Origin: Candidatus Doudnabacteria bacterium
GTDB lineage: Bacteria > Patescibacteriota > Doudnabacteria > UBA920
Direction of reading: 5' to 3'
Assembly: GCA_003151625.1 (NCBI GenBank)
Contig: PLYC01000010.1
Location: 4,283-68,282 of the forward strand
DNA: 64,000 nt
Part shown: positions 10,629-33,208 of the stretch, in pieces
Layout of the letters: the number at the start of each line of letters is the position of its first letter
Position numbering within the stretch: position 1 is the stretch's first letter
Notes under the pieces: model-generated
What the model saw: only the letters and a program-made list of their open reading frames with translations
What the model was told of the DNA's origin: nothing
Database searches by the model: none
Program-made: the position numbers and the translations under genes

Positions 10629-11630
10629 TTACTCCAGCGCGATTTTGCCTGCTGTAATCTCAGCAAGCTCGGTCGTTATTTTGTTTTGCCTTAACTTATT
10701 GTAGGTCAAAGTCAAATCGCTAATAAGGTCCCCGGCAGCTTCGGTGGCGTTTTTCATCATAACCATTCGGGCGGATTGTTCGGAGGCTTCGCTTTCCAGG
10801 ATGGTTTGGTAGATTTGGGATTCTATAATGCGGGGCAGAAGGTGTTTTAGGACTTCGGCGGGATTTGGCTCAAATAAATAGTCTGCGGTTTTCAGTTCAG
10901 AGTCTTTAGTGGGGGCGGAATTACTTGCGAATGGCAACAGTTGTTTAACCATCGGTTTTTGGACCAAAGTAGAAACAAAACGGTTGTAAAAAATTAAAAC
11001 TTTTTGATATTTGCCGGAAGAATATAAATTTGTAATAAGTTCCGCTATTGGGAAAATATCTTCCGTGGTAATAGTGCGGTCAAATTTTTCAAAATCGGCC
11101 AACACTTCTTTGTGCGAACGTATCATTACGTCCCGCCCTTTGCGTCCGTAAGTGATGAAGTCGGCTTCAAGCCGATGGGCACCATCGGTCTTGGAATTGT
11201 CCGGCTCCGACGGTGCCCATCGGACTTCAGATTCAATAGTTTTTTGCACCAAATTAAGCAAATTGCTATTCAAACTCCCCACCATTCCCCTATTGGTCGT
11301 TAAAATTAAAACCGCGATTTTTGTGGCTTTGGGATAGGATGTCATAAGCTGTGTCATCCCGGGCAGTAGCATCCGAGAGCTGGGGTCCAGGTCGGCTGAT
11401 TCTTGCAAAACATCAACGGCGTCTTGGCCCGGCGTTGCAATAGCGGCGGTTGACCCGGCTTCTATATCCAAAATCAGCTCCCAAGCCAAACTGGCGTAAG
11501 TTCTGCTCCGCATAGTCGCGTCCTGGCTCTTGCGCATTTTGGCCGCGCTGACCATTTGCATAGCCCGCGTCACCTTGCGTGTGCCGCTAATGGACTTGAT
11601 TCGAGTTTTAAGTTCTTTAATTCCGGGCAT
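10629..11630 (-). CDS. atpG: F1Fo ATP synthase gamma subunit (longer than usual; contains an in-frame palindromic insert)
   Basis: N-terminus MPGIKELKTRIKSISGTRKVTRAMQMVSAAKMRKSQ. The C-terminus is a typical gamma helix. 333 aa versus ~290 typical. Confidence 0.85.
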   Translation of the reverse strand: MPGIKELKTRIKSISGTRKVTRAMQMVSAAKMRKSQDATMRSRTYASLAWELILDIEAGSTAAIATPGQDAVDVLQESADLDPSSRMLLPGMTQLMTSYPKATKIAVLILTTNRGMVGSLNSNLLNLVQKTIESEVRWAPSEPDNSKTDGAHRLEADFITYGRKGRDVMIRSHKEVLADFEKFDRTITTEDIFPIAELITNLYSSGKYQKVLIFYNRFVSTLVQKPMVKQLLPFASNSAPTKDSELKTADYLFEPNPAEVLKHLLPRIIESQIYQTILESEASEQSARMVMMKNATEAAGDLISDLTLTYNKLRQNKITTELAEITAGKIALE

Positions 11631-11642
11631 AGATTTTAAAAT

Positions 11643-11867
11643 TTATCCGCCTATACATAATGGGCTTGATGCCCCAAAGAGCTCTAAACATTGCCTTCCT
11701 GCGTCAAAGGCGGCTGTTATAAAGAGTGCGATTCCTAAAGCGATAAGTAATAGCAGTAATATTTTGTTAAATGTTGATTTGGGAAGGAATTTACTAGCTA
11801 CTTTTAGTTGTATCCTGGCTTCTTTTCCGAGATCTTTGTCTCTAGGACTATTTGTTGATGAATCCAT
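11643..11867 (-). CDS. Small hypothetical membrane ORF between atpA and atpG
   Basis: 74 aa, one hydrophobic helix. Lies next to a hairpin-rich intergenic repeat, so it could be spurious. Confidence 0.25.
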   Translation of the reverse strand: MDSSTNSPRDKDLGKEARIQLKVASKFLPKSTFNKILLLLLIALGIALFITAAFDAGRQCLELFGASSPLCIGG

Positions 11868-12023
11868 ATACTATTGTTATCATTTTTTTAAATTTGTCCA
11901 TCCCGGCCGAGTGCATCCGAGAGCCGGGATCCAGATATATGCTAAGGTTCTGGATCCCGGACATTTTTTGCGGCTAGTGATAATCATCTGCGCAAAAAAT
12001 TCCGGGATGACACGCAAAGCGTG

Positions 12024-13523
12024 TCATTTAACTGTTTGCACAAACTGTTCAATCGCGGTTTTTAATTTGGCTTCTGTGGAATCGGAAAGTTCTTTAGTGG
12101 TCGCTATCTCGGACAAGACATCCTTGGCTTGTGTGGCCATATATTGATGGAAGACTTTTTCGGTTTCGGCCATTTTTTCCACGGGGATAGGGTTTAGGTA
12201 GCCGTTGTTGACCGCGTATAATATTGTAACTTCTTTCTCCAGAGAAAATGGCGTGTATTGCGGTTGTTTTAGGACTTCTGTCATTCTGCGGCCAAGGTCT
12301 AGGGTGCGCTGGGTTTCGGCATCAAGATCGCTGCCAAACTGTGCAAAGGCTTCCAATTCTCGGAATTGCGCTAGTTGCAGTTTTAATTTACCGGCAACTT
12401 TTTTCATAGCTTTAGTCTGCGCCGCTGAACCTACGCGCGAAACCGAAATACCTACGTTTAACGCCGGACGGATGCCTTTATAAAACAAATCGGTTTCCAA
12501 AAATATCTGCCCGTCGGTAATGGAAATAACGTTGGTTGGAATGTAAGCGGTAACATCTCCGGCCTGGGTTTCCACAATCGGCAGGGCTGTTATGGAACCG
12601 CCGCCAAAATCCTGGTTTAACTTTGCCGAGCGCTCCAGCAAACGGCTGTGGAGATAAAATACATCGCCCGGATAAGCCTCGCGTCCCGGAGGGCGGCGGA
12701 GCAGCAAGGAAATTTCACGGTAGGCAACGGCCTGCTTGGACAAATCATCATAAATAATCAAAACGTCTTTGCCTTGGTCCATAAAATATTCGCCCATAGC
12801 GCAGCCGGAGTAAGGCGCAATGTAAGACATAGCGGCAGGCTCGGAAGCGCCGGCAACAACTACAATGGTATACTCCATTGCGCCGTTTTCTTCCAAAGTT
12901 TTTACAATTTTGGCAACCTTGCTTTCTTTTTGGCCAATGGCAACATAAACACAAATCATATTCTGGCCTTTTTGGTTTATGATGGTGTCTATGGCCACGG
13001 CTGTTTTACCGGTTTGACGATCTCCGATGATCAATTCACGCTGACCTCTACCAATCGGAATAAGAGCATCAATGGCCTTAATACCCGTTTGCACAGGCTG
13101 TCTTACGCCCTGGCGGGTTATAACTCCGGGAGCAATTTTTTCCACCGGGTAAAATTTGTCAGTTTTTACCGATCCTTTACCGTCAATTGGCACCCCAAGA
13201 GCATTAACTGTGCGGCCGATAACGGCTTCACCTGCGGGGACAGACAAAATTTTTCCGGTTAAACGGACAGTGTCGCCAACTTTAATGTGCGTGTAATCGC
13301 CCAAAATAACGCTGCCGATGACGCTTTCTTCCAAGTTCAGCGCCACGCCGAATATGTTATTCCCGAAGTCTAACATTTCCATGCTGGCGGCATCTTTAAG
13401 TCCTGAAACTCGTGCCACGCCATCCCCCACTTCCAAAACCGTCCCGACTTTTTCAACTTTTACATCAGTTTGGAAAGCGGCAATTTTATTCTTAAGTTGT
13501 TCTACAATATTAGTGTTGGCCAT
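12024..13523 (-). CDS. atpA: F1Fo ATP synthase alpha subunit
   Basis: [18 protein letters not shown] Walker A, 499 aa. Confidence 0.95.
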
Positions 13524-13551
13524 AAGAGATTTAAGACTAAGGATTTAAAAA

Positions 13552-13839
13552 TTAAGTGTTAATTTTGTTGGTGGTATCAATTTTTCGATTTCTTATTTTT
13601 AGTCTAATCAGTTTTATTGATAAAACAAGAGTAATCATTCCCAATATGAAAGTTGGTAAAAAAGTGGCAAAGTACCCGATAGAATATTGTAATGAACTCA
13701 ATGAATTATTTGGGGCATTCGTTAAACGATTAAAATTAATAATGGTGAGCACCGCGAATATAATTGTCAAAATTAGACTTACCAGCCATACATTATTCCA
13801 GGCAGATTTGAAAAATTGAATTAAGGATTGCGTCTTCAT
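13552..13839 (-). CDS. Small membrane protein between atpH and atpA
   Basis: 95 aa with two predicted TM helices. Confidence 0.35.
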   Translation of the reverse strand: MKTQSLIQFFKSAWNNVWLVSLILTIIFAVLTIINFNRLTNAPNNSLSSLQYSIGYFATFLPTFILGMITLVLSIKLIRLKIRNRKIDTTNKINT

Positions 13840-14247
13840 TTACAATTTTAATTGCTTATTTAAATTATTCAACTGTGTTTTTATGCTTGCGTCGATTAGT
13901 GTGTCGTCGACTCTTACTATTACTCCGCCGATTATGGATTCGTCAATTTTTTGCTTTATCTCGAGCTTGGAATGGAGGCCGGTGGCCTCCGCTACGGAAT
14001 TTAATTGTTCGATTAGGCTTCGATTTATCTCGGATTCTTTTGCTACTGTGACTTCCGCTTCTTTTATACCCTGTGATTCTAGTTTTAGTTTGCGGAATTC
14101 GGCGTCTATTTCGTCGTATTTCCCCAAATCCCCATTCTGCGCCAAAATTTTAACAAAATTATCCAGGACCTTGTCGTGGTCTTTAGGATTTGTTTCAGTC
14201 GTTGCTTCAAACAGCGCCTGGGCGTATTGTTGGGAGGTTAATTTCAT
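13840..14247 (-). CDS. atpH: F1Fo ATP synthase delta (OSCP) subunit, short form
   Basis: Position in the operon, and OSCP-like C-terminus GGVIVRVDDTLIDASIKTQL. Confidence 0.7.
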   Translation of the reverse strand: MKLTSQQYAQALFEATTETNPKDHDKVLDNFVKILAQNGDLGKYDEIDAEFRKLKLESQGIKEAEVTVAKESEINRSLIEQLNSVAEATGLHSKLEIKQKIDESIIGGVIVRVDDTLIDASIKTQLNNLNKQLKL

Positions 14248-14516
14248 AATAAGCGTATTAAATTTTCTGCTTGGGGGCGGTATTCGGGCCGTATGGTTCC
14301 AAAAAGCTCAACGAGGTGTTTTGATGAGTCAAGTTTAAGTTCAGGATCATATTTGGCCAAATATTCTTGGAGGGCTAAAAAAATTTGCCAGCTATTAGGC
14401 ATGCCACTAAGATCTAGAATCCTTTCCTTAATATCCTCACAAATTTTCTCCCGAGCTATGGACTCATTAGGGATTGGTTGCTCTCGTCCAAAAAATTTTC
14501 CAAAAAGGACGCCCAT
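14244..14516 (-). CDS. Hypothetical protein between atpF and atpH
   Basis: 90-aa ORF with protein-like composition, overlapping the atpH start by 4 nt. Confidence 0.4.
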   Translation of the reverse strand: MGVLFGKFFGREQPIPNESIAREKICEDIKERILDLSGMPNSWQIFLALQEYLAKYDPELKLDSSKHLVELFGTIRPEYRPQAENLIRLL

Positions 14517-14517
14517 A

Positions 14518-15081
14518 TTATTTTACCAACCCTAAGGACTCCTTAATATATTCCTGATCGACTTTTGAGTCCAATTTCTTCCTCAAAATCTTCTCCGTAG
14601 CATTGATAACCAAATCGGCCAGTTCGCCTTTGGCATCCTGTAGGGCTTTGTTCTTCTCCGATTCTATTTGAGTCTTGGCTTGGTCAACCAGTTTTTGCTG
14701 ATCTTGCTTGGTTTGATCCAGTATTGCCTGTTTTGCGTTGCCTGCTTCGGTTTGGGCGGCTGTTACTATAGAAGAAGCTTCTGTTCTGGCTTTGCCCATT
14801 TCGGCTTGGCGCCAAATATCGAATTCTTTTTTCTCTTTTTCTATCCGATCCGCGTCGGTTAAGGACTTTTCTATCCGTTCTGTCCTGGCCTGCATAGCCT
14901 TGGTTACGCCCGGCAGTATCCATTTCCAAAAAATAAGCAGTAAAATGCCAAAGTTAATTAACTGGGCAATAAAAAATTTAACGTTTAAACCTAACACGGC
15001 AATACCGCCGGAACTGGCAGCCGCCTCTTGCGCGTGGGCGACAGGGATAATAAGTTGTGAAATTTGGTTAAGATCAATCAT
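14518..15081 (-). CDS. atpF: F1Fo ATP synthase b subunit
   Basis: Single N-terminal TM helix followed by a long charged coiled-coil. Confidence 0.8.
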   Translation of the reverse strand: MIDLNQISQLIIPVAHAQEAAASSGGIAVLGLNVKFFIAQLINFGILLLIFWKWILPGVTKAMQARTERIEKSLTDADRIEKEKKEFDIWRQAEMGKARTEASSIVTAAQTEAGNAKQAILDQTKQDQQKLVDQAKTQIESEKNKALQDAKGELADLVINATEKILRKKLDSKVDQEYIKESLGLVK

Positions 15082-15124
15082 TGTGAATCTGATTAAGTTT
15101 CAAAAGCGGGGGTTGTAAGGATTA

Positions 15125-15248
15125 CCGCGGAGCTTCCCTCCCCTGCTGAGGGGAGGGTTAGGGAGAGGTTGTACCTTATATGACTGCGACCTCTCTGTCT
15201 CTCGGCTGCACTCGAGACATCTCCCCTCAAAGGGGAGAGCTCCGCGGT
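15125..15248. repeat. GC-rich compound palindrome in the atpE-atpF spacer
   Basis: ccgcggagcttccctcccctgctgaggggaggg ... tctcccctcaaaggggagagctccgcgg. The outer arms ccgcggagc/gctccgcgg enclose two perfect local hairpins. Confidence 0.7.
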
Positions 15249-15283
15249 GTTGCTGATAAATCTACAACCCGCCAATCTGAAAC

Positions 15284-15502
15284 CTAAAGAGTAAACGTAA
15301 CCACTAAAGCGTAAATCGCGATAGCTTCGGCAAAAGCCATACCAAGCAACAGCGGTACGAACAATTTGTCCGCGCTTTCAGGGTTGCGGCCAATGCTTTC
15401 CATGGCTTTGCTGGCCGTTCTGCCAATGGCAATGGCCGGAGCGGCGCCGCCGATGGCAATAGTCAGGGCTTTGGCCAAAACTGTCATAGTTTGGGCATCC
15501 AT
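15284..15502 (-). CDS. atpE: F1Fo ATP synthase c subunit
   Basis: Two-helix hairpin proteolipid ..GRNPE..LLLGMAFAEAIAIYALVV, 72 aa. Confidence 0.9.
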   Translation of the reverse strand: MDAQTMTVLAKALTIAIGGAAPAIAIGRTASKAMESIGRNPESADKLFVPLLLGMAFAEAIAIYALVVTFTL

Positions 15503-15668
15503 AGTGTTTTCCTTTTGTCACATTTGGTCGACAGTTTAAGTTTGGGTTTAATGTCGCCGAGTGTGAGAGTTAATTAATTGACACAAATGACAGGATTTAA
15601 ATGATTGACATTATTTAACCGCAGTTATTCCGTCAATTTTGTTCAATCTTGTCATTCTTGCCAATTCC

Positions 15669-16529
15669 CTAAATTGCTTCCACCTCGCTGACCTCAATTT
15701 CCTGATGGTTTTCTTCAACATGGCCGTGAATTTCCGATGTCGCTATGCTTAAGTATACCAAAGTAAGCATCGAAAACACGGTGGCCTGGACAATGCCCAC
15801 TATTAATTCCAGCAACATAAATGGAATTGGAATTAAAAACGCGCCATAGCCCGCAATTAAGGAAGCCAAAACAGTAAGCAGAACTTCGCCGGCAAAAATA
15901 TTGCCGAATAACCGCAAAGAAAGCGAAACCATTTTGGCGACTTCGGAAAAAACTTCTATAAGCCCGACAAAAAATTCAATAAAAGCCACCAAAATTTTAA
16001 TCGGGCTTAAGCTTTTAATTGCCTGATAAATATCGCCAAACTTAATGAACTTGTTGGCGTATTTAAAAAATCCGATGGTAAAAATCCCCAAAATGTGGCT
16101 GGCGACAACCGCAAATACGGCCATAGCCAAAGTTAAATTTAAGTCGGTATTGGCCGGCCGCAAAATCGGTAAAAATTCGCCGCCGCGATAAAGTCCAAAA
16201 CTGCCGGTGCCGGGAAGCAGGCCGACCCAGTTGGAAAATAAAATGAAAAAGAACATCCCGCCGACAATGGGCAAAAACTTCATGGTTTTTTTGCGGTCAT
16301 GGGTTACGCCGTCAATATAGCCTAAAACAAATTCTATGAGGTACTCAAAGAAGTTAACCAAGCCTTTGGGCGCGCCTGTCGCGTAATACTTCTTTGCGCT
16401 CCTATTCAAAAAGTAGGCAAACACCGCAAAAACGACCACGCCCAGTGTGGAGTTAATATAGGCGTTTGTAATCGGAAAAGATCCGATGTGGAATATAGGT
16501 TCTGCAGCTAACGGAGGGAGGGAAAGCAT
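15669..16529 (-). CDS. atpB: F1Fo ATP synthase a subunit
   Basis: LSLRLFGNIFAGEVLL, with the conserved Arg of the a subunit. Confidence 0.9.
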   Translation of the reverse strand: MLSLPPLAAEPIFHIGSFPITNAYINSTLGVVVFAVFAYFLNRSAKKYYATGAPKGLVNFFEYLIEFVLGYIDGVTHDRKKTMKFLPIVGGMFFFILFSNWVGLLPGTGSFGLYRGGEFLPILRPANTDLNLTLAMAVFAVVASHILGIFTIGFFKYANKFIKFGDIYQAIKSLSPIKILVAFIEFFVGLIEVFSEVAKMVSLSLRLFGNIFAGEVLLTVLASLIAGYGAFLIPIPFMLLELIVGIVQATVFSMLTLVYLSIATSEIHGHVEENHQEIEVSEVEAI

Positions 16530-16555
16530 TGAGAGATATTAGTTGATATTTTTGT

Positions 16556-16607
16556 CCAATAGGCACCATTGGCTTAGGAAATTCCGATGACCAATGGTGC
16601 CTATTGG
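16556..16607. promoter_or_regulatory. Perfect 17-bp inverted repeat with 18-nt spacer between atpZ-like and atpB
   Basis: ccaataggcaccattgg-N18-ccaatggtgcctattgg. Confidence 0.5.
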
Positions 16608-16619
16608 CTGATGACAAAA

Positions 16620-16877: not shown

Positions 16878-17044
16878 TGGAACGCGATTAGATTAACAAA
16901 ATTAGGCAGTTTTGGCAAGAGTGGCGATTTTTCGGGGGGTTGACAAAATGAGATTTGTCACGGCTGGCTTCAATTATCGTGGGTGGTCGTAGCCCTTTAG
17001 GGCGCAGACCACGAGCGGATCCCGCCTTGGCGGGACGAGTCGAG

Positions 17045-17145: not shown

Positions 17146-18027
17146 TTAAAAGGGCACTACTTCAAACTTTAGCTTCCGCCCAAACAACCTTTTTGCCACT
17201 TCGCCGAACTCGCGGTTGTACTTGGTTACTAAAAAAGTCCGTTGATGATGCTTGGAAAGCTTTTTGCTAATTTCGGGATGACGCTTAAGGTAGTTAGACA
17301 ACTTCCCGGGCAAAAAATCTGTTTGGGAAACAACTTTGATATTTTTACCAACAAGCTTTTTTATCTGCTGTTCTAAAATTGGATAATGGGTACAACCCAA
17401 AATTAGCGCTTCAATATTGTGTTTAAGAAGCGGCTGTAAGTATAATCCTAGCGTTTTTTCGGCTAATTGTAAAGAATTCCTTTCAATTAGAGGCACCAGT
17501 TTAGGCGCTGCCACTTCAAAAATTTTTGCTTTAGCGTCAATTTTAATTAGCTCTTTTTTGTAAATATGCGACCGAATAGTCGCGCTCGTGCCAATAACCC
17601 CAATTATTTTACGCTTATGATTTTTATCCGCCTCTTCCAAAGTCGGAATCACGACTCCCAAAACGCGTTTGCCCGGATAAAATTTTGGCAAATACTCCTG
17701 TTGGATTTTGCGTAAAGCCAAAGCCGAGGCCGTATTACAGGCCAGAATTACTAGTTGGCAATCCTGGTCAAACAGGTATTTTATCGCACGACTTGTATAC
17801 TTGTATACTTGCCCGGCCGACTTATTTCCATAAGGGAGCCATTTTGTGTCGCCCAAGTATACGTAGTCGTAACTGGACAAATTTTTTCCGCCAGAGGCGG
17901 GTCCGCCCGCTTCGCTCTCGCGAATGCGAGGCGAGCCTTTGGCGGAAAAAATCGCTTTGGCAATAACCAAACCTCCAAGACCGGAATCAAAAATTCCGAT
18001 TTTTCCTTCTGATATTATGTTTTTCAT
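17146..18027 (-). CDS. murI: Glutamate racemase (contains an in-frame palindromic insert)
   Basis: GIFDSGLGGL, YLGDTKWLPYG, ILACNTAS, LGCTHYP. An extra segment SAKGSPRIRESEAGGPASGGKNL is encoded by a GC-rich palindrome. Confidence 0.85.
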   Translation of the reverse strand: MKNIISEGKIGIFDSGLGGLVIAKAIFSAKGSPRIRESEAGGPASGGKNLSSYDYVYLGDTKWLPYGNKSAGQVYKYTSRAIKYLFDQDCQLVILACNTASALALRKIQQEYLPKFYPGKRVLGVVIPTLEEADKNHKRKIIGVIGTSATIRSHIYKKELIKIDAKAKIFEVAAPKLVPLIERNSLQLAEKTLGLYLQPLLKHNIEALILGCTHYPILEQQIKKLVGKNIKVVSQTDFLPGKLSNYLKRHPEISKKLSKHHQRTFLVTKYNREFGEVAKRLFGRKLKFEVVPF

Positions 18028-19800: not shown

Positions 19801-20044
19801 AAGTTTTGATTTTAGAACTCATATTAAAAATAATTTGTAGGCGAAATTCCAGGATTTTAAGCGGGTTGGCTCTTAATAAATTTTGTCGTACCAGAGGTAG
19901 ATCCGCCTCCGGCGAAACGTTTAGCCGAAGCTAAGCGGCCGTTCGAGGCTCTGAGGAGCCCTCAGACTCCCGAAGAGATAAATTTTTAAGGCCAAGGCGC
20001 CAAAATGCTGGAATTGCAGCCCGAAGTATTTTTAAAATGGGTTC

Positions 20045-21838: not shown

Positions 21839-22157
21839 TTTATTAGCGACGTAGAGTGAGTGAAAGTTATATTCAGATAACTTTCCGAGCCGAGGAGCTA
21901 ATACAGGTTCATCACCTGGTCAGCTCTTCGGAGAGCGAACCTTTATTTTGTGCCGATAAATGATCCGGCAAATAACGCGCCAACCATACTTAACACGACA
22001 ATAATCATAATTACTGCCATAATTTTATTTAGGTGTTTACGATTTTTGAACATGTGAAATTAAGTGATAATTAATTATAAGTAAAGGGAAGTTTTCATTT
22101 GACTCTTTTTGCATACCCGTAACTCAATACATTTTACCATATTTTAGAGAAAAACAA

Positions 22158-23310: not shown

Positions 23311-23435
23311 ATTAAATTATTTTTCGGAAATTTCATCTTTTTCCCGTATTTCTTTCGCCGTATTGATAATTAGCCTATTTACAGACTCGTCTATAACGGT
23401 AGAGGCGGGGTCAAACGGCAAATAAATAAAAGGTT

Positions 23436-23471
23436 CCTGACACCTTTTCTGATCCTGACACCTTTTCTGAT
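23436..23471. repeat. 18-nt tandem duplication cctgacaccttttctgat x2, part of the motif aaaaggttcctgacacctttt that recurs at 23878-23898
   Basis: Direct reading of the sequence. Confidence 0.7.
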
Positions 23472-23518
23472 CAATCCCAGCCCTACGGGCAAAGACCGGC
23501 GCGACCTACAGTTTAAAT

Positions 23519-23548
23519 ATTGACTGTAAATAAAATTAGGCGTAATAT
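23519..23548 (+). promoter_or_regulatory. Strong sigma70-like promoter (TTGACT-N17-TAATAT) inside a repeat-flanked island
   Basis: ttgactgtaaataaaattaggcgtaatat, followed 7 nt later by ATG. See findings. Confidence 0.35.
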
Positions 23549-23795
23549 TTGCGTTATGGCAGACAATGAGAATCGAGGAAATTTCTGCAGCGGGCAACTC
23601 CCGGCGGGGGGTTTGGAGCCGGCTTCCAAAGGCAAGCACGGCTTCGATATCCCTGTTACCGAGGCCAAAGCGAGAGCTTCCATAAAAGTGACGGCGTATG
23701 TGCCGGCGCAATTAGAGCCGGTGGATTATATCGTCGCCACAGATCCGTCACACAAAGACGGCACTCGCGGCAGCTAATCAACAACCGCTCGATGT

Positions 23796-23856
23796 CGTTC
23801 GAGCAACTTAAAAGGACCGGCAAAAATCTCGCCCGGTCCTTGTTCTTTTATAAAAA
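23796..23856. repeat. Island repeat unit R1 (copy 2)
   Basis: ..cgagcaacttaaaaggaccggcaaaaatctcgcccggtccttgttctttta. Confidence 0.7.
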
Positions 23857-23912
23857 GGCACCTGGCACTTTAATGATTAAAAGGTTCCTGACACCTTTTT
23901 TGTCTTCTTTTT

Positions 23913-24726: not shown

Positions 24727-26592
24727 TTATTTTTTTAAAACAGCCAAAAACGCTTCCTGGGGAATGTCCACGCGGCCGATTTTTTTCATTCGCTTTTTGC
24801 CGCGCTTTTGTTTGTTGAGGAGTTTCATTTTGCGGGTAACGTCGCCGCCGTAGAGATAGCCGGTAACGTCTTTACGTAATGCCGATATAGTTTCGCGGGC
24901 AATTACTTTTCCTCCGATGACGGCTTGGATAGCGACTTCAAATTGATGGCGAGGAATTAGGGTTTTTAGGCGTTCAACAAGACTTTTTCCGTCTACGGCA
25001 GCGTTGGAGCGGTGCATTATCGCGGAGAGTGCAACAACCGGTTCGCCCGCCACTAAAATATCAACTTTAACTAAATCCCCTATCCGCTCGTCAATTAAAT
25101 CGTAATTTAAGGAAGCGTAGCCGCTGGAAACGGATTTTAGCTTGTCGTAAAAATCGGAAATAATATTGGCAAGCGGCATTTCAAAATGCATATCAACTCG
25201 GTCCTTACCAAGGTATTTTATGTCTTTAGATATGGCCCGGCGCTGGGTGGCAATTTCCATAATCGGGCCAATGTAGGTTTGAGGCACTAAAATATTTACG
25301 GACATCCAAGGTTCGTACAATTCCTTGATGATGGAGGGATCCGGAAACTCCGCAGGGTTGTGGATGTACAAATCTTTTCCGGCGCTGGTAACTACATGAT
25401 AAGCGACCGACGGCGCTGTTAAAATTAAATCCAGATTATATTCCCGAGTCAACCGTTCCTGCACAATGTCCATGTGGAGCAAGCCAAGAAAACCAGTGCG
25501 GAATCCAAAACCGATTGACGGGATATTAATCGGCTCAAACTCCAGGGCGGCATCTGACAGTTTTAGTTTGCCCATAGCATCCCGAAGTATGGGGTAATCA
25601 TCCCCGCTTACAGGGAAGATTGTGGCATAAACCATGGGTTTTACGTGTTTATAACCAGGAAGCTGCTGTACGTCGGTTTTACGCTCAAAGAGGGTTATTG
25701 TGTCGCCGACCCTGGCCTTGCTAACGTCACGCAAGCCGGTAACTATGTATCCGACTTCGCCGGTTTTTATACCGCCGCTTTTTTCCATTTTTGGATGGAA
25801 ATAGCCAACCTCCAAACTTTCAAACTGCGTCTGACTACCAATGGCAAATATTTTTTCGCGGTTTTTTAGCTCGCCTTCAAAACAGCGGACAAATACAATA
25901 ACGCCGCGGTGGATGTCGTAAGATGAATCGAATATTAAACCTCTTAACGGTTTTTGTTCGTCGCCGGTTGGAGCCGGAACTTTTTCTATTACCCGTTTAA
26001 TAATTTCTTTTACGCCTTCACCGGTTTTGCCGGAAGCATACAAAATTTCCTCATCTGTAAACCCAAACGCAACCTTAAGTTCGTCCGCGGTTTTTTGGCG
26101 GTCGGAGTTGGGCAGGTCAATTTTATTTACAACAGGAATTAAAACTAAATTGTGCTCAAGTGCCAAATGAACATTGGCCAGGGTTTGAGCTTCTATGCCT
26201 TGGGTAGAATCAACTACTAAAATCGCGCCTTCACAGCAGGCCAGCGAGCGGGAAACTTCGTAACTAAAGTCAACGTGCCCCGGAGTGTCAATCAGATTTA
26301 AGATGTAAGTTGTAGGGGCTGGCTTTAGCCGCCCGTCATCAGTAAGCGGGCGGGCAAGCTCGGCCCCTACAGCTAACTGATATTCCATCCTAACGGGTTG
26401 CAATTTAATCGTTATCCCCCGTTCGCGTTCCAAATCCATTTGGTCGAGTAACTGATCCTTCATGTTCCGCTGTTCCACCGTGTGGGTAATTTCCAAAAGC
26501 CGGTCGGCAAGCGTGGACTTGCCGTGGTCTATATGGGCGATAATACAAAAATTTCTAATATTTTTCTGGTTCATATATATTAACGGCGTCAT
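24727..26592 (-). CDS. lepA: Elongation factor 4 (LepA), carrying an in-frame palindromic insert in the G domain
   Basis: NFCIIAHIDHGKSTLADRLL, DTPGHVDF, NKIDL. 621 aa. Confidence 0.95.
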   Translation of the reverse strand: MTPLIYMNQKNIRNFCIIAHIDHGKSTLADRLLEITHTVEQRNMKDQLLDQMDLERERGITIKLQPVRMEYQLAVGAELARPLTDDGRLKPAPTTYILNLIDTPGHVDFSYEVSRSLACCEGAILVVDSTQGIEAQTLANVHLALEHNLVLIPVVNKIDLPNSDRQKTADELKVAFGFTDEEILYASGKTGEGVKEIIKRVIEKVPAPTGDEQKPLRGLIFDSSYDIHRGVIVFVRCFEGELKNREKIFAIGSQTQFESLEVGYFHPKMEKSGGIKTGEVGYIVTGLRDVSKARVGDTITLFERKTDVQQLPGYKHVKPMVYATIFPVSGDDYPILRDAMGKLKLSDAALEFEPINIPSIGFGFRTGFLGLLHMDIVQERLTREYNLDLILTAPSVAYHVVTSAGKDLYIHNPAEFPDPSIIKELYEPWMSVNILVPQTYIGPIMEIATQRRAISKDIKYLGKDRVDMHFEMPLANIISDFYDKLKSVSSGYASLNYDLIDERIGDLVKVDILVAGEPVVALSAIMHRSNAAVDGKSLVERLKTLIPRHQFEVAIQAVIGGKVIARETISALRKDVTGYLYGGDVTRKMKLLNKQKRGKKRMKKIGRVDIPQEAFLAVLKK

Positions 26593-26699: not shown

Positions 26700-28286
26700 T
26701 TAAAAAATCCTTTTTACCACATCCATAACCTGCCGGGACTGGCGTATGCCAAGTTTATAGGAAACAAACAAAAAAGCGAGGAGGGCAGCGCCTACCGAAA
26801 GGCCGGATTGGATTATTATCCCCAAAGTGGTATGGGTATTTACCAAAGGGGCAAAAATATAAATCGCGCAATAACCAACCAAACCCATTACCGTGCTTGA
26901 AGCTAAAATTTTAAAAATAAACGCTCCAACTTCAGAGTCAAACTCCGCTAGCTCGGCATTGTCTTTATGCAAAAACTGCCGCAAAAAAATAAACATTAGT
27001 ATTGCATCTAAAGTGCAGGCAATGGCAAAACCCGAAGCAATCCCAATAAGACCAAAGTTTACGCCTAAAACGTAAGCTAAAATAATATCCACAACAATGG
27101 AGCATAAATTAACAATGACCGGAATAATAGTATTTTGACGGGCATAAAAACTGCGGGAAAACAAAGGCGAAAGGCTTTGGCCAATAAGCGACAGCGATAA
27201 AATTCCGAAAGTCGTAAACATCAGCACGGTATCGCTCCAGTTGAATTTTCCGTGGCCATATATTATGCGAACAATATAAGCCCTGAAAATTATCATTAAA
27301 ATGGAAATGGGAATGATAAAAAACAGCACCATCATAACATTTTGCCCTAAAGTTTTTACAAAAGCTTTATTGTCTCTTTTGGCGTAGTGCTCCGAAAGCA
27401 AAGGAAAAGAAGCGGCAGATATGGACAGCGCAAAAACGCCCAAAGGAGCGGCCTGCAAATTATTGGCAAGATTAAAAATGGTTACAGAGCCGGCGGCCAA
27501 AATCGAACCGACCGTGGTGCCGACAATGAGGCTAATTTGGGAAATGTCCATGCCAATAATCCGGGGAATAAAAAGTTTGGCGATTTTTTTGAGCGCCGGT
27601 TCGCGCCAGTCAATAACCGCGTGCCAGCGCCAGCCGAAACGAATGGCTTCGGGAATTTGCACCAGCATATGGCAAAGGGCGCCTAAAATTACGCCATAAC
27701 CCAAACCCATAAGCCCAAAATGCGGGTAAAAAAAGAACAGCCCGAAAATTATGCCTAAATTGTACATAATCGGCGCAATGCTCAAAACCAGGAACTTTTT
27801 GCTGGCTGTTAAGTAGCTGGTAAAAATATTGGATGCCGTAAAAATTATGGGCGAAAGCAAAAACAGCCGCATAAGCTGTACGGTCCTCTCGAGTTTTTCT
27901 CCACTAAAACCGGGCACTAAAAATTTCGTTAGCGGGGTGGAAAGCATAAACATAACCAAACAGACCAAACCCATACCCAAGACCGAAATATTCAGCACCG
28001 AGCCGGCAATCCGGTTGGCGCGGTCTTTGTCTTTTGTCAGCCATTCCGTAAAAATCGGAATTAAGGCCACCGACAGCGTGCCCAGTATCAGTAGGTTGAA
28101 AATGAAGTCCGGGATACGAAAAGCCGCGTAATAAATATCCAGGGTGTTGCCGACCCCGATTTTGCCGGCAAGCAAAGGATCGCGAACCAATCCCACAAGT
28201 TTTGACAGCAGCGTAAAAAAGCCCACAATAATTGCGGCTTTGGAGACACTAAAATTTTGTTCGAGATTTTTAAGTTTATTGAACAT
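26700..28286 (-). CDS. murJ: Lipid II flippase MurJ (MviN)
   Basis: 528-aa polytopic membrane protein with the MurJ N-terminal signature SKLVGLVRDPLLAGKIGVGNTLDIYYAAFRIPDF. Confidence 0.85.
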   Translation of the reverse strand: MFNKLKNLEQNFSVSKAAIIVGFFTLLSKLVGLVRDPLLAGKIGVGNTLDIYYAAFRIPDFIFNLLILGTLSVALIPIFTEWLTKDKDRANRIAGSVLNISVLGMGLVCLVMFMLSTPLTKFLVPGFSGEKLERTVQLMRLFLLSPIIFTASNIFTSYLTASKKFLVLSIAPIMYNLGIIFGLFFFYPHFGLMGLGYGVILGALCHMLVQIPEAIRFGWRWHAVIDWREPALKKIAKLFIPRIIGMDISQISLIVGTTVGSILAAGSVTIFNLANNLQAAPLGVFALSISAASFPLLSEHYAKRDNKAFVKTLGQNVMMVLFFIIPISILMIIFRAYIVRIIYGHGKFNWSDTVLMFTTFGILSLSLIGQSLSPLFSRSFYARQNTIIPVIVNLCSIVVDIILAYVLGVNFGLIGIASGFAIACTLDAILMFIFLRQFLHKDNAELAEFDSEVGAFIFKILASSTVMGLVGYCAIYIFAPLVNTHTTLGIIIQSGLSVGAALLAFLFVSYKLGIRQSRQVMDVVKRIF

Positions 28287-28297
28287 TTAAAAATTGT

Positions 28298-28378
28298 CTA
28301 CTAAATACTAATCGTTCTAAAAATACTAAACTCCCATGAGGCCCTTTAGTACTTTTAGAGTCTTTAGTATTTAGTAGA
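28298..28378. repeat. CTACTAAATACTAA-family long inverted repeat (copy 1)
   Basis: gtctactaaatactaatcgttctaaaaatactaaactc...gagtctttagtatttagtagag: ~36-bp arms, near-perfect. Confidence 0.8.
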
Positions 28379-28380
28379 GG

Positions 28381-30612
28381 CTATCGTTTGGACAACACCA
28401 GACCCAAAAAGTAGTCTTTATCCAGTATTATATCAGAGTTTAGGCTGTCTGTGTTAAGGGTTTGGGTTTGAAAATTTTTCCAGGCAATCTGGCGACCGGT
28501 AAAATTTACAGTCCAGTTAAAATCCAAATTTGTACTGCCGATTTGTTTTTGCAGAAGCAGGCTGTATTTATCAACATCGCTTAATTTAAAGGGTAGTTGG
28601 TAAATTAGCTTGACCGTACGGCTTTGGCCGGCATTAACATTTAGCCAATTGCCGTAAAAAGTTTTTCCGCTTTCTTGGCCAATATATGTCCCGGTGACCA
28701 CATCTTTCACGGAATTTTTTTCCCAATTGTAAACGTCTGGGTCTACCTGGTAATTTTGGCCGACCGGATAATTTAAAATTTGGTAATCAAATCCTATATT
28801 GCTGACAAGTTTGCTTCCGAGCGGCACATAAATTCTCATAAAACTGTTATTAAAGGTCCCGGGTAAATTCGGCATTTTATTAGTTCGGGTTATGTCCACT
28901 TCATTGGTTATAGTTCCATCGTCCCCGATTGTAGTAGCCAGATTAATTTTCTGGTCAATGTAAAGATCAGTTTTTGTCGCGCCAAGGTTGCTGGTTACCA
29001 CAGACAAATAGTCGCGGTCAGTATTGTTAACCGAACCAGCCCAATTAAATTCCTTAAACTGGTTTTCCAAACCGGTGTCGCGGGAATAGGCAACTATCTG
29101 CTTGTTATTCAAATTATCCTGCAGGCTTTGGATAATTTGCGGCCATGCCGAAGAAGGGCTTTGGCTAATTTTTTGCAAAAGTATTGGTACCAAATCGGCC
29201 AAAAGTTGTTTGGGGGCATTAGTCGGTAAATCGTTGCTCATAGTGGTCACCGCCTGGGTCTCTTCTACAAAATTATCCGAGGACAATGTCACACCGTAAT
29301 TGGGAAGTTTAATTGAGCCGGTAATTTTTAGCCAGTCTACAATTATATTCGGGGTCATAGCAATCACCACATCCGGGGTTTCTCCTCCCTCCATCTCATA
29401 AAAGTCGCTGATTTTAGAAGCCGATAATGGAAAATCCGCGAACCAATTAGCGTCTCTCATATACCAGTTGCCGCTGACTTTCAGCAATGGTGTTGGCGGT
29501 TGGATATTTTGGGCCAGTTGATTATCTATATCATATATACTGCTAACATTGATTCTACTTATTTGTCCGTTATTGATTTTTAAATTTCCAAAAGTGCCTA
29601 TAAACCCTCCGCCTGCCCGAAGTTCGTTATTATTTTCAAACAAAACTAAAATGTTTTTGTCCCCTTTTAGCAAATTTTCGGCCAGCCCAAACACCATACT
29701 AAAATTGCTCAGGGTAAATTGGGCAATTTGCAGCTTAGTTTTCAAATCCACAAAGTTTTCGCGGACGGATGCGGGCAGTAAGCCCGGATCAATTTTATTC
29801 ACAAGAGTGTTGGCTCGAGAAATTTTATTGGAAATCCTTCCAATGCCGGCATCTATATTATCCAAAGCCTGACCTGTCGGCCTGCTACTGCTACTAAGGC
29901 CGCTGGGCCCAATTTGCAACTGTTTAATTTGATTCTGTAATGCAATAAAATCCTGCCCGCTTGAAGAAACCAGTGAGGCGGCTTCCAATAAACCATCAGC
30001 AGTTTGCTTTTGCGGCAAAATTGACATTAACTGATTTAATAACAGTCCGGAAGCGGCCAACTCGTTTTGACCTTGATTAAAGGCCTGAAAAGCCAGGGCA
30101 AAACGATTATTAGCAGTTGTAAAATCCTGACCGGCCAATGCGTCTTTTGCTTGGGACAAATAAGTGTTGCCCAGGGCGGCCGTTTGCATTACCTGATTTT
30201 TAACCTCGAGGCCGTTTGCAATTAAATGTAAAGACGCAATGCCACAATACCCTAAAACCGAAATGCAACAAAAGATCAATAAAGTTCTGGCAAAATTTTT
30301 TTGTACCACGAGTTTTAATCGCTCGGGAAAAGTTTTTTTTGTGGTTTTAATATCCCGAATTAACGCCCGGTAGGTTTTTTGCGGCGGAGTGATTATCAAA
30401 AATAAAGTTTTTTGGTAAAGAGCAACGATTTTATTACCGACAAACTTCAGCACCGATATAATAGCCAGCCCGGTAAAATAAAAAATATTCAATAAAAAAT
30501 CCAAAACTTTTGACAAAAACCGCACTGGCCAAGGTTTATTTTTGGCTTTTACAGTTAAAAAACTTCTGTGATGCGTATACAATATGAATTTTTTTGGAGC
30601 TTTGGTTTTCAT
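28381..30612 (-). CDS. DUF4012-family membrane protein
   Basis: N-terminal TM segment plus ELRAGGGFIGTFGNLKINNGQI (DUF4012 GGGF signature). 743 aa. Confidence 0.55.
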   Translation of the reverse strand: MKTKAPKKFILYTHHRSFLTVKAKNKPWPVRFLSKVLDFLLNIFYFTGLAIISVLKFVGNKIVALYQKTLFLIITPPQKTYRALIRDIKTTKKTFPERLKLVVQKNFARTLLIFCCISVLGYCGIASLHLIANGLEVKNQVMQTAALGNTYLSQAKDALAGQDFTTANNRFALAFQAFNQGQNELAASGLLLNQLMSILPQKQTADGLLEAASLVSSSGQDFIALQNQIKQLQIGPSGLSSSSRPTGQALDNIDAGIGRISNKISRANTLVNKIDPGLLPASVRENFVDLKTKLQIAQFTLSNFSMVFGLAENLLKGDKNILVLFENNNELRAGGGFIGTFGNLKINNGQISRINVSSIYDIDNQLAQNIQPPTPLLKVSGNWYMRDANWFADFPLSASKISDFYEMEGGETPDVVIAMTPNIIVDWLKITGSIKLPNYGVTLSSDNFVEETQAVTTMSNDLPTNAPKQLLADLVPILLQKISQSPSSAWPQIIQSLQDNLNNKQIVAYSRDTGLENQFKEFNWAGSVNNTDRDYLSVVTSNLGATKTDLYIDQKINLATTIGDDGTITNEVDITRTNKMPNLPGTFNNSFMRIYVPLGSKLVSNIGFDYQILNYPVGQNYQVDPDVYNWEKNSVKDVVTGTYIGQESGKTFYGNWLNVNAGQSRTVKLIYQLPFKLSDVDKYSLLLQKQIGSTNLDFNWTVNFTGRQIAWKNFQTQTLNTDSLNSDIILDKDYFLGLVLSKR

Positions 30613-30653
30613 TTAACTGCGCGTTAATTGGCGTAAAAAAATTAAATTATTCA

Positions 30654-31769
30654 TTACGCTCTTACGGTTTTGTGCCCGTATCTTGAAATATTTAACAATA
30701 TCCCAACGGCCGCTAAATTTGCCATTAAGGAAGTACTGCCATAACTAAAAAAAGGCAATGGGATCCCGGTTAAGGGCAATAAATTTAAAATGGCCGCGAC
30801 GTTAATTAAAGCTTGGAGAGTAATCCACGATGTAATCCCCAAGGCCACCATTTTGCCAAAGGTATCGGGAGCATTCCGAGCAATTTGAAAACCCTTTAAA
30901 GCAAACAGGGCAAATAATACTAAGGCCGCGAGCACTCTAAAAAATCCCAATTCTTCGGCGAAAACCGCGAAAACGGAATCGTTTATTACCGCCGGAAGGT
31001 AATTATGTTTTTGCCTGGACAACCCGTAGCCAAAACCCCACAAGCCGCCGGAACCAATGGCCAACAGCGCCTGATTAATTTGGTAGCTAATGCCTTTGGG
31101 GTCTAAAGCCGGGTTTAAAAAAGTAGCCAGACGCTTTACACGATAAGGTTCAATTTTAATGAACACATAAAGGGCTAAAATGCCGCCGATAAAACTGTAA
31201 AAAAAATATTTCCAATTTATTCCGGCCGCGAATAACATAAAAAAAGAGACCAATAACAGAACTAGCATTGTGCCAAAATCCGGCTGCCACAAAATGAGCG
31301 CTCCAAACAGAGCAATGATGCACAAAGACGGCAAGAGCCCGTAATAAAAATCGTTTAACGCGCCCTGTTTTTTTTCTACCCAGCTGGCCAAATACAAAAT
31401 TATTACCAACTTAGCAAGCTCGGCCGGCTGAAATGTAGCGGGGCCAAGACGTACCCATCTTGCGGCACCGCCCGCGGCAACTCCAAGACCGGGTATTTTA
31501 ACCAGCATTAACAAAAAAAGTGAAATAAAAATTAAATAAGGTAAATATTTTTGCCAAAAATGATAACCCAATTTACTGCAAACATACATCGCAATTAAGC
31601 CAACGACTGCCCCATATAGAACTTGATGAACAATATAGTAGCTGGTGTTCCCGAAAACCGCAAACGATTGAACGGCAGAAGCAGAATAAAGTACCGCTAA
31701 TCCATACGCTAAAAGCCCCAGTGTAATGAGCAAGAGAGTGTAGTCGAGTTGTTGATTTTTTTTTAACAT
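30654..31769 (-). CDS. ftsW: SEDS-family peptidoglycan glycosyltransferase FtsW/RodA
   Basis: 10-TM SEDS architecture with the conserved C-terminal region ..LPLTGIPLPFFSYGSTSL. Confidence 0.85.
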   Translation of the reverse strand: MLKKNQQLDYTLLLITLGLLAYGLAVLYSASAVQSFAVFGNTSYYIVHQVLYGAVVGLIAMYVCSKLGYHFWQKYLPYLIFISLFLLMLVKIPGLGVAAGGAARWVRLGPATFQPAELAKLVIILYLASWVEKKQGALNDFYYGLLPSLCIIALFGALILWQPDFGTMLVLLLVSFFMLFAAGINWKYFFYSFIGGILALYVFIKIEPYRVKRLATFLNPALDPKGISYQINQALLAIGSGGLWGFGYGLSRQKHNYLPAVINDSVFAVFAEELGFFRVLAALVLFALFALKGFQIARNAPDTFGKMVALGITSWITLQALINVAAILNLLPLTGIPLPFFSYGSTSLMANLAAVGILLNISRYGHKTVRA

Positions 31770-33208
31770 TTAGAATAATTTTTAACCCCCTGCTTAAACT
31801 GGTCACCGCGGTCAACGTAACTTTTAAACATGTCAAAGCTGGCGCAAGCGGGACTAAGCACAACTACGTCTCCTGATTCCGCGACCGATTCAATTTGTTT
31901 AAAAATTTCTTCAATATTTTTTGCACCCTCAATAATCCTATTTGTATCTTCTCCTAAAGATTGTTTTATGCGGCCGGCTTCTTGGCCAATTAAAATTATC
32001 TTTTTGATATTTTTCCTCGAATTGACAGCTCTGCCAAGTTCCGTAAAGTTGGAATTTTTAGAGGAGCCTCCCAAAATAATAATCAATGGCTCGGTAAAAG
32101 ATTGCATTGCGGCAATGGCTGTTTCCGGAGTAGTCGAAAAAGAATCATTATAAAATTTAACGCCGCTTTTTTTAGCCACGAACTCCAAGCGATGCTCGAG
32201 GCCTTTAAAATTTAGGGCGGCTTTTTTTATAGATTCTAAATCTGCTCCTGCCGAGCGGGTAGCCAAAATTGCAGCCATAACATTGTCAAAATTATGCTCG
32301 CCTCGCAAGTGCAACTGACTAACCGGTAAATGAAAGTTTCCCGTAAAAATTTCTTTATTTTCAACGAATGCTGCGACAATTTTTCCGCGTTCTTGGTTTT
32401 GACGGCCGTCAAAACCAAGAACGTATTTTTTTCGACTGAAATAAAGTTTTTTGCCTTTACTCTGTTCTCCAATCAGAACTGAATTTTCAAAGTCTGCGTT
32501 AATTATCGCAAAATCATCAAGCGTTTGAAATTTGGTAATAGATGATTTGGCGTCAACATAATCTTTTTGATTAGTATGATAATCAAGGTGTTCGCTTGTA
32601 ACCATTAAAACTACGGCAATGTGTGGGCTTTTTTCCAAATCTTGAAGTTGAAAACTCGACAGTTCGTAAACGACATAATCATCAGCACCTAAATTATCAA
32701 GAATCTCCAGGGGTTGAGTTTTGCCAATGTTGCCTGTTAAGTAGCATTTAGCGTTTAGCTTATAGCTCTTAGCCAGCAGAATCTCATATATAAGGCTCGA
32801 TGTAGTCCCTTTACCTTTTGTCCCAGTAATCCCAATAATTTTAGCCGGACAATGTTCAAAAAACCATCTGGTCTGGCTGGTTATCACGAGTCTCCCTCTC
32901 CCTTTGGGGGAGGGCTGGGGTGAGGGTTCTGTCCACCGATTAATATCCGGATTATTTAGCTTAATACCCGGACTCCTAAACGCAATATCAAACCCGGCCA
33001 ATTCTTTAAATGCATGCGCCCCAAAAATAAAATTTAGTCCCAATTTCTCAATTTTCAATTTCTCAATTTCGCTCCAACTCTCCCACGGTCTTTGGTCAAA
33101 CAGCACCGGTTTGATTTTATGTTTCAATAAATAAGCTGTTACAGCTTTCCCCTCTTGCCCATAACCTAAAACACCCACAAGTTTTCCTTTTAAATCTTGC
33201 AAATTCAT
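31763..33208 (-). CDS. murD: UDP-N-acetylmuramoylalanine--D-glutamate ligase (contains an in-frame palindromic insert)
   Basis: VLGYGQEGKA N-terminus, GITGTKGKGTTSSLI P-loop. An extra PSPQPSPKGRGR segment is encoded by a G/C-rich palindrome. Confidence 0.9.
   Translation of the reverse strand: MNLQDLKGKLVGVLGYGQEGKAVTAYLLKHKIKPVLFDQRPWESWSEIEKLKIEKLGLNFIFGAHAFKELAGFDIAFRSPGIKLNNPDINRWTEPSPQPSPKGRGRLVITSQTRWFFEHCPAKIIGITGTKGKGTTSSLIYEILLAKSYKLNAKCYLTGNIGKTQPLEILDNLGADDYVVYELSSFQLQDLEKSPHIAVVLMVTSEHLDYHTNQKDYVDAKSSITKFQTLDDFAIINADFENSVLIGEQSKGKKLYFSRKKYVLGFDGRQNQERGKIVAAFVENKEIFTGNFHLPVSQLHLRGEHNFDNVMAAILATRSAGADLESIKKAALNFKGLEHRLEFVAKKSGVKFYNDSFSTTPETAIAAMQSFTEPLIIILGGSSKNSNFTELGRAVNSRKNIKKIILIGQEAGRIKQSLGEDTNRIIEGAKNIEEIFKQIESVAESGDVVVLSPACASFDMFKSYVDRGDQFKQGVKNYSKC

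Follow-up and report, generated by a model that had tools for sequence, protein, structure and literature searches.

Why do several essential genes of a Candidatus Doudnabacteria genome carry short extra peptide segments encoded by palindromic DNA, and by what route did this DNA enter them? The question is raised by the 64,000-nt stretch analysed here (contig PLYC01000010.1, hereafter the window; 41.5% GC), in which the atp operon, murI, lepA, murJ, ftsW and murD all lie on the minus strand and where a first-pass annotation had pointed to palindromes within atpG, murI, lepA and murD. We find short repeats that form hairpins, belonging to at least five families, both in intergenic DNA and in frame within essential genes. 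The window was compared with loci of relatives or metagenome contigs, numbered L001, L003 and so on; L001 is ~95% identical to the window across 19 kb, and the closest LepA and AtpG proteins come from metagenome-assembled genomes of Candidatus Doudnabacteria or Patescibacteria.

Alignment to solved structures confirmed that MurI, LepA, MurD and AtpG all contain segments absent from their solved homologues. In MurI the surplus amounts to ~20 residues (aa 28-50) that follow helix 1 and precede strand 2; LepA has 17 (aa 73-93, in the loop before the DTPGH motif, between two G-domain strands), MurD ~10 (aa ~95-105, between the N-terminal and central domains) and AtpG ~27 after its N-terminal helix (insert 1, within aa 60-102). 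An additional in-frame segment of AtpG, overlooked in the first-pass annotation, adds 14-16 residues at aa 136-151 (insert 2, encoded at 11172-11223). Examples of the peptides read across inserts are PSPQPSPKGRGR and LARPLTDDGRLK. The expected placement in loops was also seen in AlphaFold models: in the weaker LepA model (predicted local distance difference test score, pLDDT, 64.8) the insert (aa 74-93) is a low-confidence coil between strands 67-73 and 94-101, and in AtpG (pLDDT 82.8, with a confident core) the inserts (aa 61-99 and 138-154) likewise form low-confidence coil between secondary-structure elements.

The palindromes quoted in the first-pass annotation are all found in the window, two of them at slightly different coordinates (the lepA palindrome covers 26312-26370 and does not start at 26322; the atpG string lies at 11355-11388). 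Palindromy itself was assessed by folding the segments as single-stranded DNA against 200 dinucleotide shuffles. It lies far beyond chance for murI (z = -5.97, 0/200 shuffles) and lepA (0/200 shuffles; z in Table 1), and likewise atpG insert 2 reached z = -5.79 (0/200 shuffles) and the atpA-atpG spacer z = -6.79. The claim did not hold for the two other segments, whose folding as simple hairpins does not reach significance. For the murD insert z was -1.23 (27/200 shuffles) in a test of duplex folding only, its assignment to a triplex class resting on sequence, and for atpG 11351-11395 it was -0.57. These two are non-random because they are copies of repeats, not because they fold into hairpins.

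The segments are insertions and are polymorphic among close relatives, as lineage-specific additions should be. L001 lacks both the lepA insert and the inner hairpin of the murI insert, and L003 lacks the lepA insert as well. In murI, the outer 36-nt doublet is common to the window, L001, L003 and L025 and is missing from most other MurI orthologues; judged from this distribution, the outer hairpin is older than the 30-nt hairpin nested in it. The murD insert is unique to the window among 54 Doudnabacteria MurD orthologues. This alignment was used in place of L001 as an empty murD site, which was set aside as not clean, the whole linker being replaced there.

The insertion sites are hot spots. 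Among close LepA proteins, 72 of 121 have no insert and 49 carry inserts of 7-36 residues (~150 in two cases); at the DNA level, the site is occupied in 31 of 78 loci and empty in 47. The LepA inserts of relatives are mutually unrelated in sequence, and all sit in exactly one and the same loop. Many are palindromes centred on this loop, either G+C-rich (L006 has a perfect 25-bp stem) or built of A+T-rich heptamer repeats. L017 MurD carries an unrelated palindromic insert at the site of the window murD insert, and the lengths of AtpG orthologues, which vary at three sites, span 272 to 403 aa. As for the A+T-rich tandem heptamers (TTACAAC, TTACAAG, GTCAAAG/GTCAAAT), they fill the LepA inserts of L015, L048 and L057; the same heptamers fill the MurD linker in L001 (~3650-3700) and L003 (~3560-3600) and recur between the MurD and LepA sites across genomes.

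Related copies had been reported from the spacers, and we indeed found members of the same families in further genes and at further sites, in either orientation, as well as in intergenic DNA. They do not form the single family first envisaged; the families, at least five in number, are unrelated to one another. The murD insert is a repeat already known elsewhere. Over 37 nt it shares 92.3% identity with E. coli copies of BoxC/PIT/TM, an intrastrand-triplex repeat of E. coli and >260 genomes (Holder et al. 2015, PMC4666352), and the match is present in 4468 of 5426 E. coli genomes, at a median of 5 places per genome with no annotated feature beneath it. BoxC/TM is defined by a pyrimidine block CCCTCNCCC, a short loop, a purine block GGGAGAGGG, 2-4 nt and GGG(G)TGAGGG (PMC4666352). 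The murD insert and the atpE-atpF spacer share the corresponding three-block structure (CCCTCTCCC, loop, GGGAGAGGG, 2-4 nt, GGGGTGAGGG), with 32893-32926 reading CCCTCTCCCTTTGGGGGAGGGCTGGGGTGAGGGT and 15136-15168 reading CCCTCCCCTGCTGAGGGGAGGGTTAGGGAGAGG when set against Table 1 of PMC4666352; within the window the murD insert finds its counterpart in the spacer at 15150-15168 (2 hits vs 0.01 expected). The atpE-atpF composite combines this BoxC-type triplet with a hairpin carrying a CTCTCGGCTGCACTCG loop (15193-15219) and with TCTCCCCTCAAAGGGGAGA (15222-15240). In viral contigs of 51-71% GC, 28 of 35 exact-hairpin matches have a GGG(G)TGAGG tail within a few bases. Two further in-frame copies are found in relatives, one at a different MurD site in L003 (TLTPGPSPKGRGKG) and one in opposite orientation in L043 MurI (LPLPLGEGRGEG). 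An exclusively intergenic location, which is a property of the E. coli copies and lies outside the motif definition, is therefore not shared, since the window murD, L003 MurD and L043 MurI copies are in open reading frames (ORFs).

The lepA element, with ends GTAGGGGCC...GCCCCTAC, starts with GTAG and closes with CTAC, the tag of repetitive extragenic palindromes (REPs). One GTAG-tagged copy is present in the window and further copies lie in other genomes: relatives of the type TGTAGGGG...CCCCTACA occur in lepA of L006, L009 and L002, within the reading frame of L043 AtpH and immediately downstream of L045 lepA. A different family is represented by atpG insert 2, which consists of two self-complementary 17-mers around an 18-nt spacer and has intergenic relatives in the window (Table 1) and an in-frame copy in L043 AtpA. 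The doublet architecture of REPINs (paired REPs) is seen in atpG insert 2, at 16556-16607 and in L043 AtpA; the outer unit of the murI insert is also made of two hairpins. The arms of the atpG-insert-2 family change in concert: across three copies, 7 of 17 stem pairs show two-sided changes and none a one-sided change, and 98% of them are paired.

One of the window elements resembles a MITE (miniature inverted-repeat transposable element). Elements of 81-122 nt with terminal inverted repeats TGTCATCCCGG ... CCGGGATGACA occur at seven loci; the intact copy in the atpA-atpG spacer has three internal hairpins between these ends, the L224 copy is ~88% identical to it, and a like architecture is found in L207, L142, L143, L188 and L212. 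This TGTCAT...ATGACA element was found in about 10 low-GC metagenome contigs plus several Doudnabacteria loci; a metagenome scan with CTCTCGGMTGCACTCG returned mostly chance matches in high-GC coding DNA. Insert 1 of atpG is a decayed copy, of which 11352-11390 (LDPSSRMLLPGMT) is the best-preserved part; 11355-11390 is 81% identical to 11899-11934 (0/100 shuffles). The motif ctctcgg(a/c)tgcactcg, reported to recur in three elements, is exact in two (11908-11923, minus strand; 15199-15214, plus strand) and has three mismatches in the atpG copy. Full-length copies are found in frame in AtpG orthologues, with peptides such as GVIPE...LDPGSRMHSAGMT and GVIPEDLSASENLSGIQKDGLDLDPGSRMHSAGMT, in which the element ends read VIPE/VIPA...AGMT, and the TGA in the end sequence is met by just one of the three frames.

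A sixth class comprises perfect palindromes centred on ACGGCCGT, whose arms are locus-specific. Four such (A)CGGCCG(T)-centred palindromes lie in the window (32388-32423, 46983-47016, 49614-49649 and 57541-57574; 0.14 expected), with arms of 16-17 nt that differ by locus; two are in murD and murB and two at gene junctions. A comparable class, centred on ACTATTCGCGCGAATAGT, is present in L009, L011 and L030.

The folding pattern of inserts is general in the Doudnabacteria clade. We surveyed 18 core-gene families across ~75 Doudnabacteria loci, comparing inserts of 8-60 residues with random coding segments: 34% of the lineage-specific inserts had z < -2 (vs 6.8% of random segments) and 22% had z < -3 (vs 1%; Mann-Whitney p = 3e-9 for the comparison). 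A census of perfect stems of at least 9 bp in 1.26 Mb counted 569 hairpins against 124 in a block-shuffled control; the G+C-rich ones numbered 103 against 13, and roughly half of them were within ORFs.

Table 1. Palindromic and hairpin features of the window, with coordinates, strand and supporting evidence.
Feature	Position	Strand	Evidence or remark
atpG insert 2 (VRWAPSEPDNSKTDGA), doublet hairpin CCGATGGGCACCGTCGG-loop-CCGATGGTGCCCATCGG	11172..11223	-	alignment, fold, related copies
atpG insert 1, decayed TGTCAT...ATGACA copy	11334..11450	-	similarity to spacer copy; no significant fold
Intact ~118-nt MITE-like palindrome with ends TGTCATCCCGG / CCGGGATGGACA, atpA-atpG spacer	11895..12012	-	fold, copies in other contigs
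Hairpin ATGACACGC-AAA-GCGTGTCAT	12007..12027	.	overlaps end of MITE-like element, abuts atpA stop
Composite palindrome, atpE-atpF spacer	15113..15259	.	fold z = -6.58, motif matches
Intergenic copy of atpG-insert-2 family	16556..16607	.	upstream of atpB
murI in-frame insert (SAKGSPRIRESEAGGPASGG), outer unit a doublet of two CCGCC-NNN-GGCGG hairpins	17884..17949	-	alignment, fold
Younger 30-nt hairpin (GGCTCGCCTCGCATTCGCGAGAGCGAAGCG) nested centrally in murI doublet	17908..17937	-	absent from L001 and L003
Pair of G+C-rich hairpin segments in intergenic DNA (19886-19916; 19939-19977)	19886..19977	.	flank conserved TTAGCTTCGGCTAA hairpin; absent from L001
lepA in-frame GTAG...CTAC-tagged REP-like hairpin (AVGAELARPLTDDGRLKPAP)	26312..26370	-	fold z = -4.73, alignment, absent from L001 and L003
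Perfect palindrome without spacer, ACGGCCGT at its centre, within murD (FDGRQNQ)	32388..32423	-	z = -6.66; also in L001
murD in-frame BoxC/PIT/TM intrastrand-triplex repeat (PSPQPSPKGRGR)	32890..32926	-	alignment, E. coli BoxC match, PMC4666352 Table 1
Looser intergenic relative of atpG-insert-2 family (CAATGGGCACC arms)	57251..57295	.	
Perfect palindrome centred on ACGGCCGT, inside murB	57541..57574	-	

The best explanation of these patterns, and in our judgement a probable one, is that these are dispersed non-autonomous palindromic elements of which selection has left those insertions that keep the frame, bring no stop codon and lie in permissive loops. That the elements are dispersed and copied is argued by the near-identical sequences found in unrelated genes, sites, orientations and genomes, together with the polymorphism between near-identical genomes. 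The elements (30-120 nt, mostly G+C-rich) would be non-autonomous and new copies would be made in trans, most likely by a hairpin-recognising single-stranded DNA transposase of the HUH/Y1 kind (an REP-associated tyrosine transposase, RAYT, or the IS200-IS605 type) or by a comparable hairpin-dependent process; the GTAG tag, the doublet architecture and the concerted arm changes point to such an enzyme. Copies would land intergenically and within genes, and selection would purge intragenic ones that shift the frame, bring in a stop codon or disrupt the fold, so that the survivors would be stop-free copies that keep the frame and sit in a small number of permissive surface loops, their survival helped by the low stop-codon content of G+C-rich hairpins. 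The inserts would then be translated as disordered or hairpin-like extensions, presumably neutral or selfish ones. Existing hairpins would attract further insertions, giving rise to nesting and tandem stacking, the arms would be kept complementary through concerted change, and old copies would decay. Nesting is seen in murI and also in L020 and L071, where lepA hairpins carry an ORF. Removal of the inserts at the RNA or protein level was considered and rejected: all are in frame, stop-free and too short for inteins, and no intein motifs were visible by eye.

Several observations nevertheless weigh against mobile elements as the source. The 10 unassigned ORFs of the window include no transposase, RAYT or integrase in Pfam searches, which returned PIN, NYN, RmuC and other domains. 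The hairpin inserts have no visible target-site duplication or common target sequence; the flanks of seven TGTCAT copies are likewise without a direct repeat, and no parent insertion sequence was seen for them. For BoxC, no mobilisation mechanism is known (PMC4666352). When each LepA insert and the inner murI hairpin were searched by BLAST in 1.4 Mb of related loci, most of the former and the latter yielded no second copy, and mobility is an assumption in those cases. Some palindromes with a conserved centre have locus-specific and yet perfectly complementary arms, which fits formation in situ better than transposition. Finally, when the window is compared with L001, nucleotide identity is ~95% upstream and ~84% downstream, with the break exactly at the lepA insert (26308-26380 vs L001 10195-10213). 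The hairpin may accordingly mark the edge of a recombination tract and, because the drop coincides exactly with the insert, a diverged allele may have brought the insert in through homologous recombination, in place of local transposition.

How far could the palindromes have been formed in place, by template switching or fold-back synthesis (quasi-palindrome 'correction') and by slippage in tolerant loops, without any mobile element and with their similarity being convergent or recombinational? Most LepA inserts, although unique in sequence, are palindromes with the native loop at their centre; in the palindromes built around ACGGCCGT and ACTATTCGCGCGAATAGT, the arms are particular to each locus and yet pair perfectly; every stem change affects both sides; and several inserts consist of A+T-rich heptamer repeats. 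Such a process cannot, however, yield near-identical sequences of 35-120 nt across unrelated genes, sites, orientations and even phyla, and in murI and lepA both arms are new with respect to the empty site. As a full account we regard it as rather unlikely. Because many LepA inserts are unique, the perfect arms of some palindromes locus-specific and the stem changes never one-sided, template switching in situ probably has a part in making or preserving arms; the shared families cannot be put down to it. The two-sided changes, with conserved loops (loop CTCTCGGATGCACTCG), could also be read as the mark of selected nucleic-acid signals, such as mRNA stabilisers, RNase- or terminator-like structures, translational pauses or DNA triplex/gyrase sites, whose presence within genes would be adaptive. 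Many copies do lie just downstream of genes, and roles of this kind have been proposed for REPs and BoxC (PMC3733652, PMC4666352). However, presence or absence varies between ~95%-identical genomes, one site is occupied by different families in different genomes, the atpG copy is decayed, and at the gathering threshold no Rfam family covers any hairpin in the window and four related loci; this makes a signal function a quite improbable reason for the insertions.

Selection could instead act on the peptides, as adaptive lineage-specific loops (for example in interactions of an epibiotic lifestyle) for which DNA palindromy would be incidental. A DG/NG turn, which would fit an extended beta-hairpin, is frequent at the centre of LepA inserts, and the sites are reused across the clade; but close relatives have inserts of unrelated sequence or, often, none, the same DNA is found in non-coding spacers and in both orientations, conservation of the insert peptides across the clade is absent, and the models place them in low-confidence coil. 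Adaptive loops are accordingly very improbable. That the sequences come from metagenome-assembled genomes raises the matter of assembly or binning artefacts, for instance chimeric joins at repeats, yet like inserts occur in many independent assemblies from different projects, the reading frame is kept in all of them, and an AtpG 100% identical to that of the window is on record on a 425-kb contig, so that an artefact is extremely improbable.

A further scenario comes from two relatives in which the LepA hot-spot loop holds a complete GxxExxY PD-(D/E)XK domain (PF13366) in frame (L020 10172-10693; L071 10154-10663). The insert measures 456-468 nt, and the domain lies in the loop of a long imperfect stem of GTCCG-type heptamer repeats. 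Intervening sequences of rRNA that carry an ORF have the same layout, with the ORF in the loop of a long stem. Homologues of the domain are almost all free-standing ORFs of ~130 aa, one further LepA fusion fragment excepted; in the two cases examined the free-standing ORFs abut or overlap neighbouring genes, and one is flanked by inverted repeats. Rfam found no group I or II intron around the homologues in four related loci. The short hairpins might then be versions without the ORF, or else landing pads, of a site-seeking, nuclease-carrying 'in-frame intervening sequence', an idea that we consider unlikely. Nuclease-driven, homing-like insertion, if true, would account for the single LepA hot spot, for nested elements and for unrelated palindromes succeeding one another at one site, and it would amount to a mobile-element strategy apart from inteins, introns and RPEs (Rickettsia palindromic elements), tolerated through being translated.

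The window contains other features that lie outside the families described above. An A+T-rich intergenic palindrome family with heptamer-like repeats (TCTACTAAATACTAA...TTTAGTATTTAGTAGA) is present at 28292-28383, 36001-36116 and 42308-42379 and also in L001. Relative to L001, a 103-nt intergenic insertion at 21845-21947 has AATAAA on both sides, which may be a target duplication of 6 bp; small hairpins lie within it, and it has 24-26-nt matches in L005 and L019 and is distinct in sequence from the TGTCAT element. The region 23391-23900, which contains several G+C-rich indels of 20-39 nt relative to L001 and AAAAGGTTCCTGACACCTTTT twice (23421-23451 and 23872-23902), is poorly alignable between these otherwise near-identical genomes. 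A tRNA gene at 6455-6795 (minus strand) is apparently split by a group I intron (RF00028, 66.9 bits at 6526-6728); its exons are 5' GCGGGATAGAGCAATTGGCAGCTCGCAAGGCTC and 3' ...GGTTCCCGGTTCGAGTCCGGGTCCCGCAACCA, and it is not called by ARAGORN. About 1.7 kb (54760-56440) of this gene-dense genome has no credible ORF on either strand and could be a large RNA or a decayed gene; an Rfam search by E-value of 54.7-56.9 kb gave no match even at E = 0.1. Small ORFs are interleaved with the atp genes on the minus strand (11643-11867, 10300-10626, 14244-14516 and 13552-13839; 74, 108, 90 and 95 aa), one of them between atpA and atpG, and we know of no counterpart to them among the standard F-ATPase subunits. 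Lastly, 4801-5820 (minus strand) encodes an RmuC-family protein (Pfam E = 1e-52). E. coli RmuC limits rearrangements at short inverted repeats, and the protein is possibly relevant in a palindrome-rich genome.

What these insertions mean can be stated on several levels. Patescibacteria have very small genomes with few recognised mobile elements. Here LepA, the F1 gamma subunit, MurD and MurI are repeatedly remodelled by hairpin repeats, which are a practical source of lineage-specific loops, and the inserts confound the alignment, phylogeny and structure prediction of marker proteins of the CPR (Candidate Phyla Radiation). A BoxC repeat in frame in a distant phylum bears on the spread of a long-puzzling repeat, and the polymorphic sites, filled in some genomes and empty in others, make the question testable. 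The first-pass annotation had regarded such elements as uncharacterised for a genome of this kind. Literature searches bear this out in that they returned no description of in-frame palindromic elements in Patescibacteria; the murD family, for its part, is the described BoxC/PIT/TM (PMC4666352).

In-frame palindromic repeats are known from Rickettsia as RPEs (Ogata et al. 2000, as summarised in PMC3733652), in-frame intragenic GTAG/CGTC REPs from other phyla as well as several proteobacteria (Di Nocera et al. 2013, PMC3733652), and REP/REPIN elements with a GTAG tag are mobilised by RAYTs (PMC3733652; Bertels & Rainey 2011, PMC3116915). The window elements resemble RPEs as dispersed palindromes that are intergenic as well as in frame in housekeeping genes, where they add a peptide and leave the host protein intact, in a small, reduced genome; the ~118-nt TGTCAT...ATGACA element also falls in the RPE/MITE size class. 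RPEs are ~100-150 bp long, whereas most window inserts are much shorter (30-66 nt). They further differ in that at least five unrelated families coexist, hot spots are reused across families and copies are nested, all in a Patescibacterium and not in an alphaproteobacterium. The RPE-like behaviour first proposed thus stands as far as repeated palindromes in frame in housekeeping genes and in spacers are concerned, and it is only by inference that they can be called selfish or transposing; by eye, no window element has a CGTC end tag, and we treat them provisionally as elements that work like RPEs and not as RPE members.

With REPs and REPINs they share 20-40-nt G+C-rich imperfect palindromes, GTAG...CTAC ends (lepA), spaced doublets, compensatory arm variation and in-frame copies. 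They differ in a copy number per Doudnabacteria genome that looks low, in the lack of a RAYT among the 10 unassigned ORFs and in an intragenic share that seems much larger than in REP-rich proteobacteria. BoxC is matched in the three-block structure of the murD and atpE-atpF copies and in an association with local sequence instability. In E. coli, however, BoxC copies are reported to be always intergenic, whereas here they are in frame within essential genes, in a host of 41.5% GC from a distant phylum. Intragenic bacterial MITEs (Delihas 2007, PMC2759123; PMC10969869) are reported to be similarly short and non-autonomous, with terminal inverted repeats, long hairpins and a peptide contribution; the TGTCAT element differs from them in that its seven copies show no target-site duplication and no parent insertion sequence has been identified. 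Altogether, the elements are RPE-like and intragenic-REP-like, and the extension of this phenomenon to another phylum is well supported. The principle has been known since the Rickettsia RPEs and intragenic REPs and is extended here, not newly defined; what the Doudnabacteria add is the coexistence of several families, the reuse of hot spots, nesting, and BoxC in frame within essential genes.

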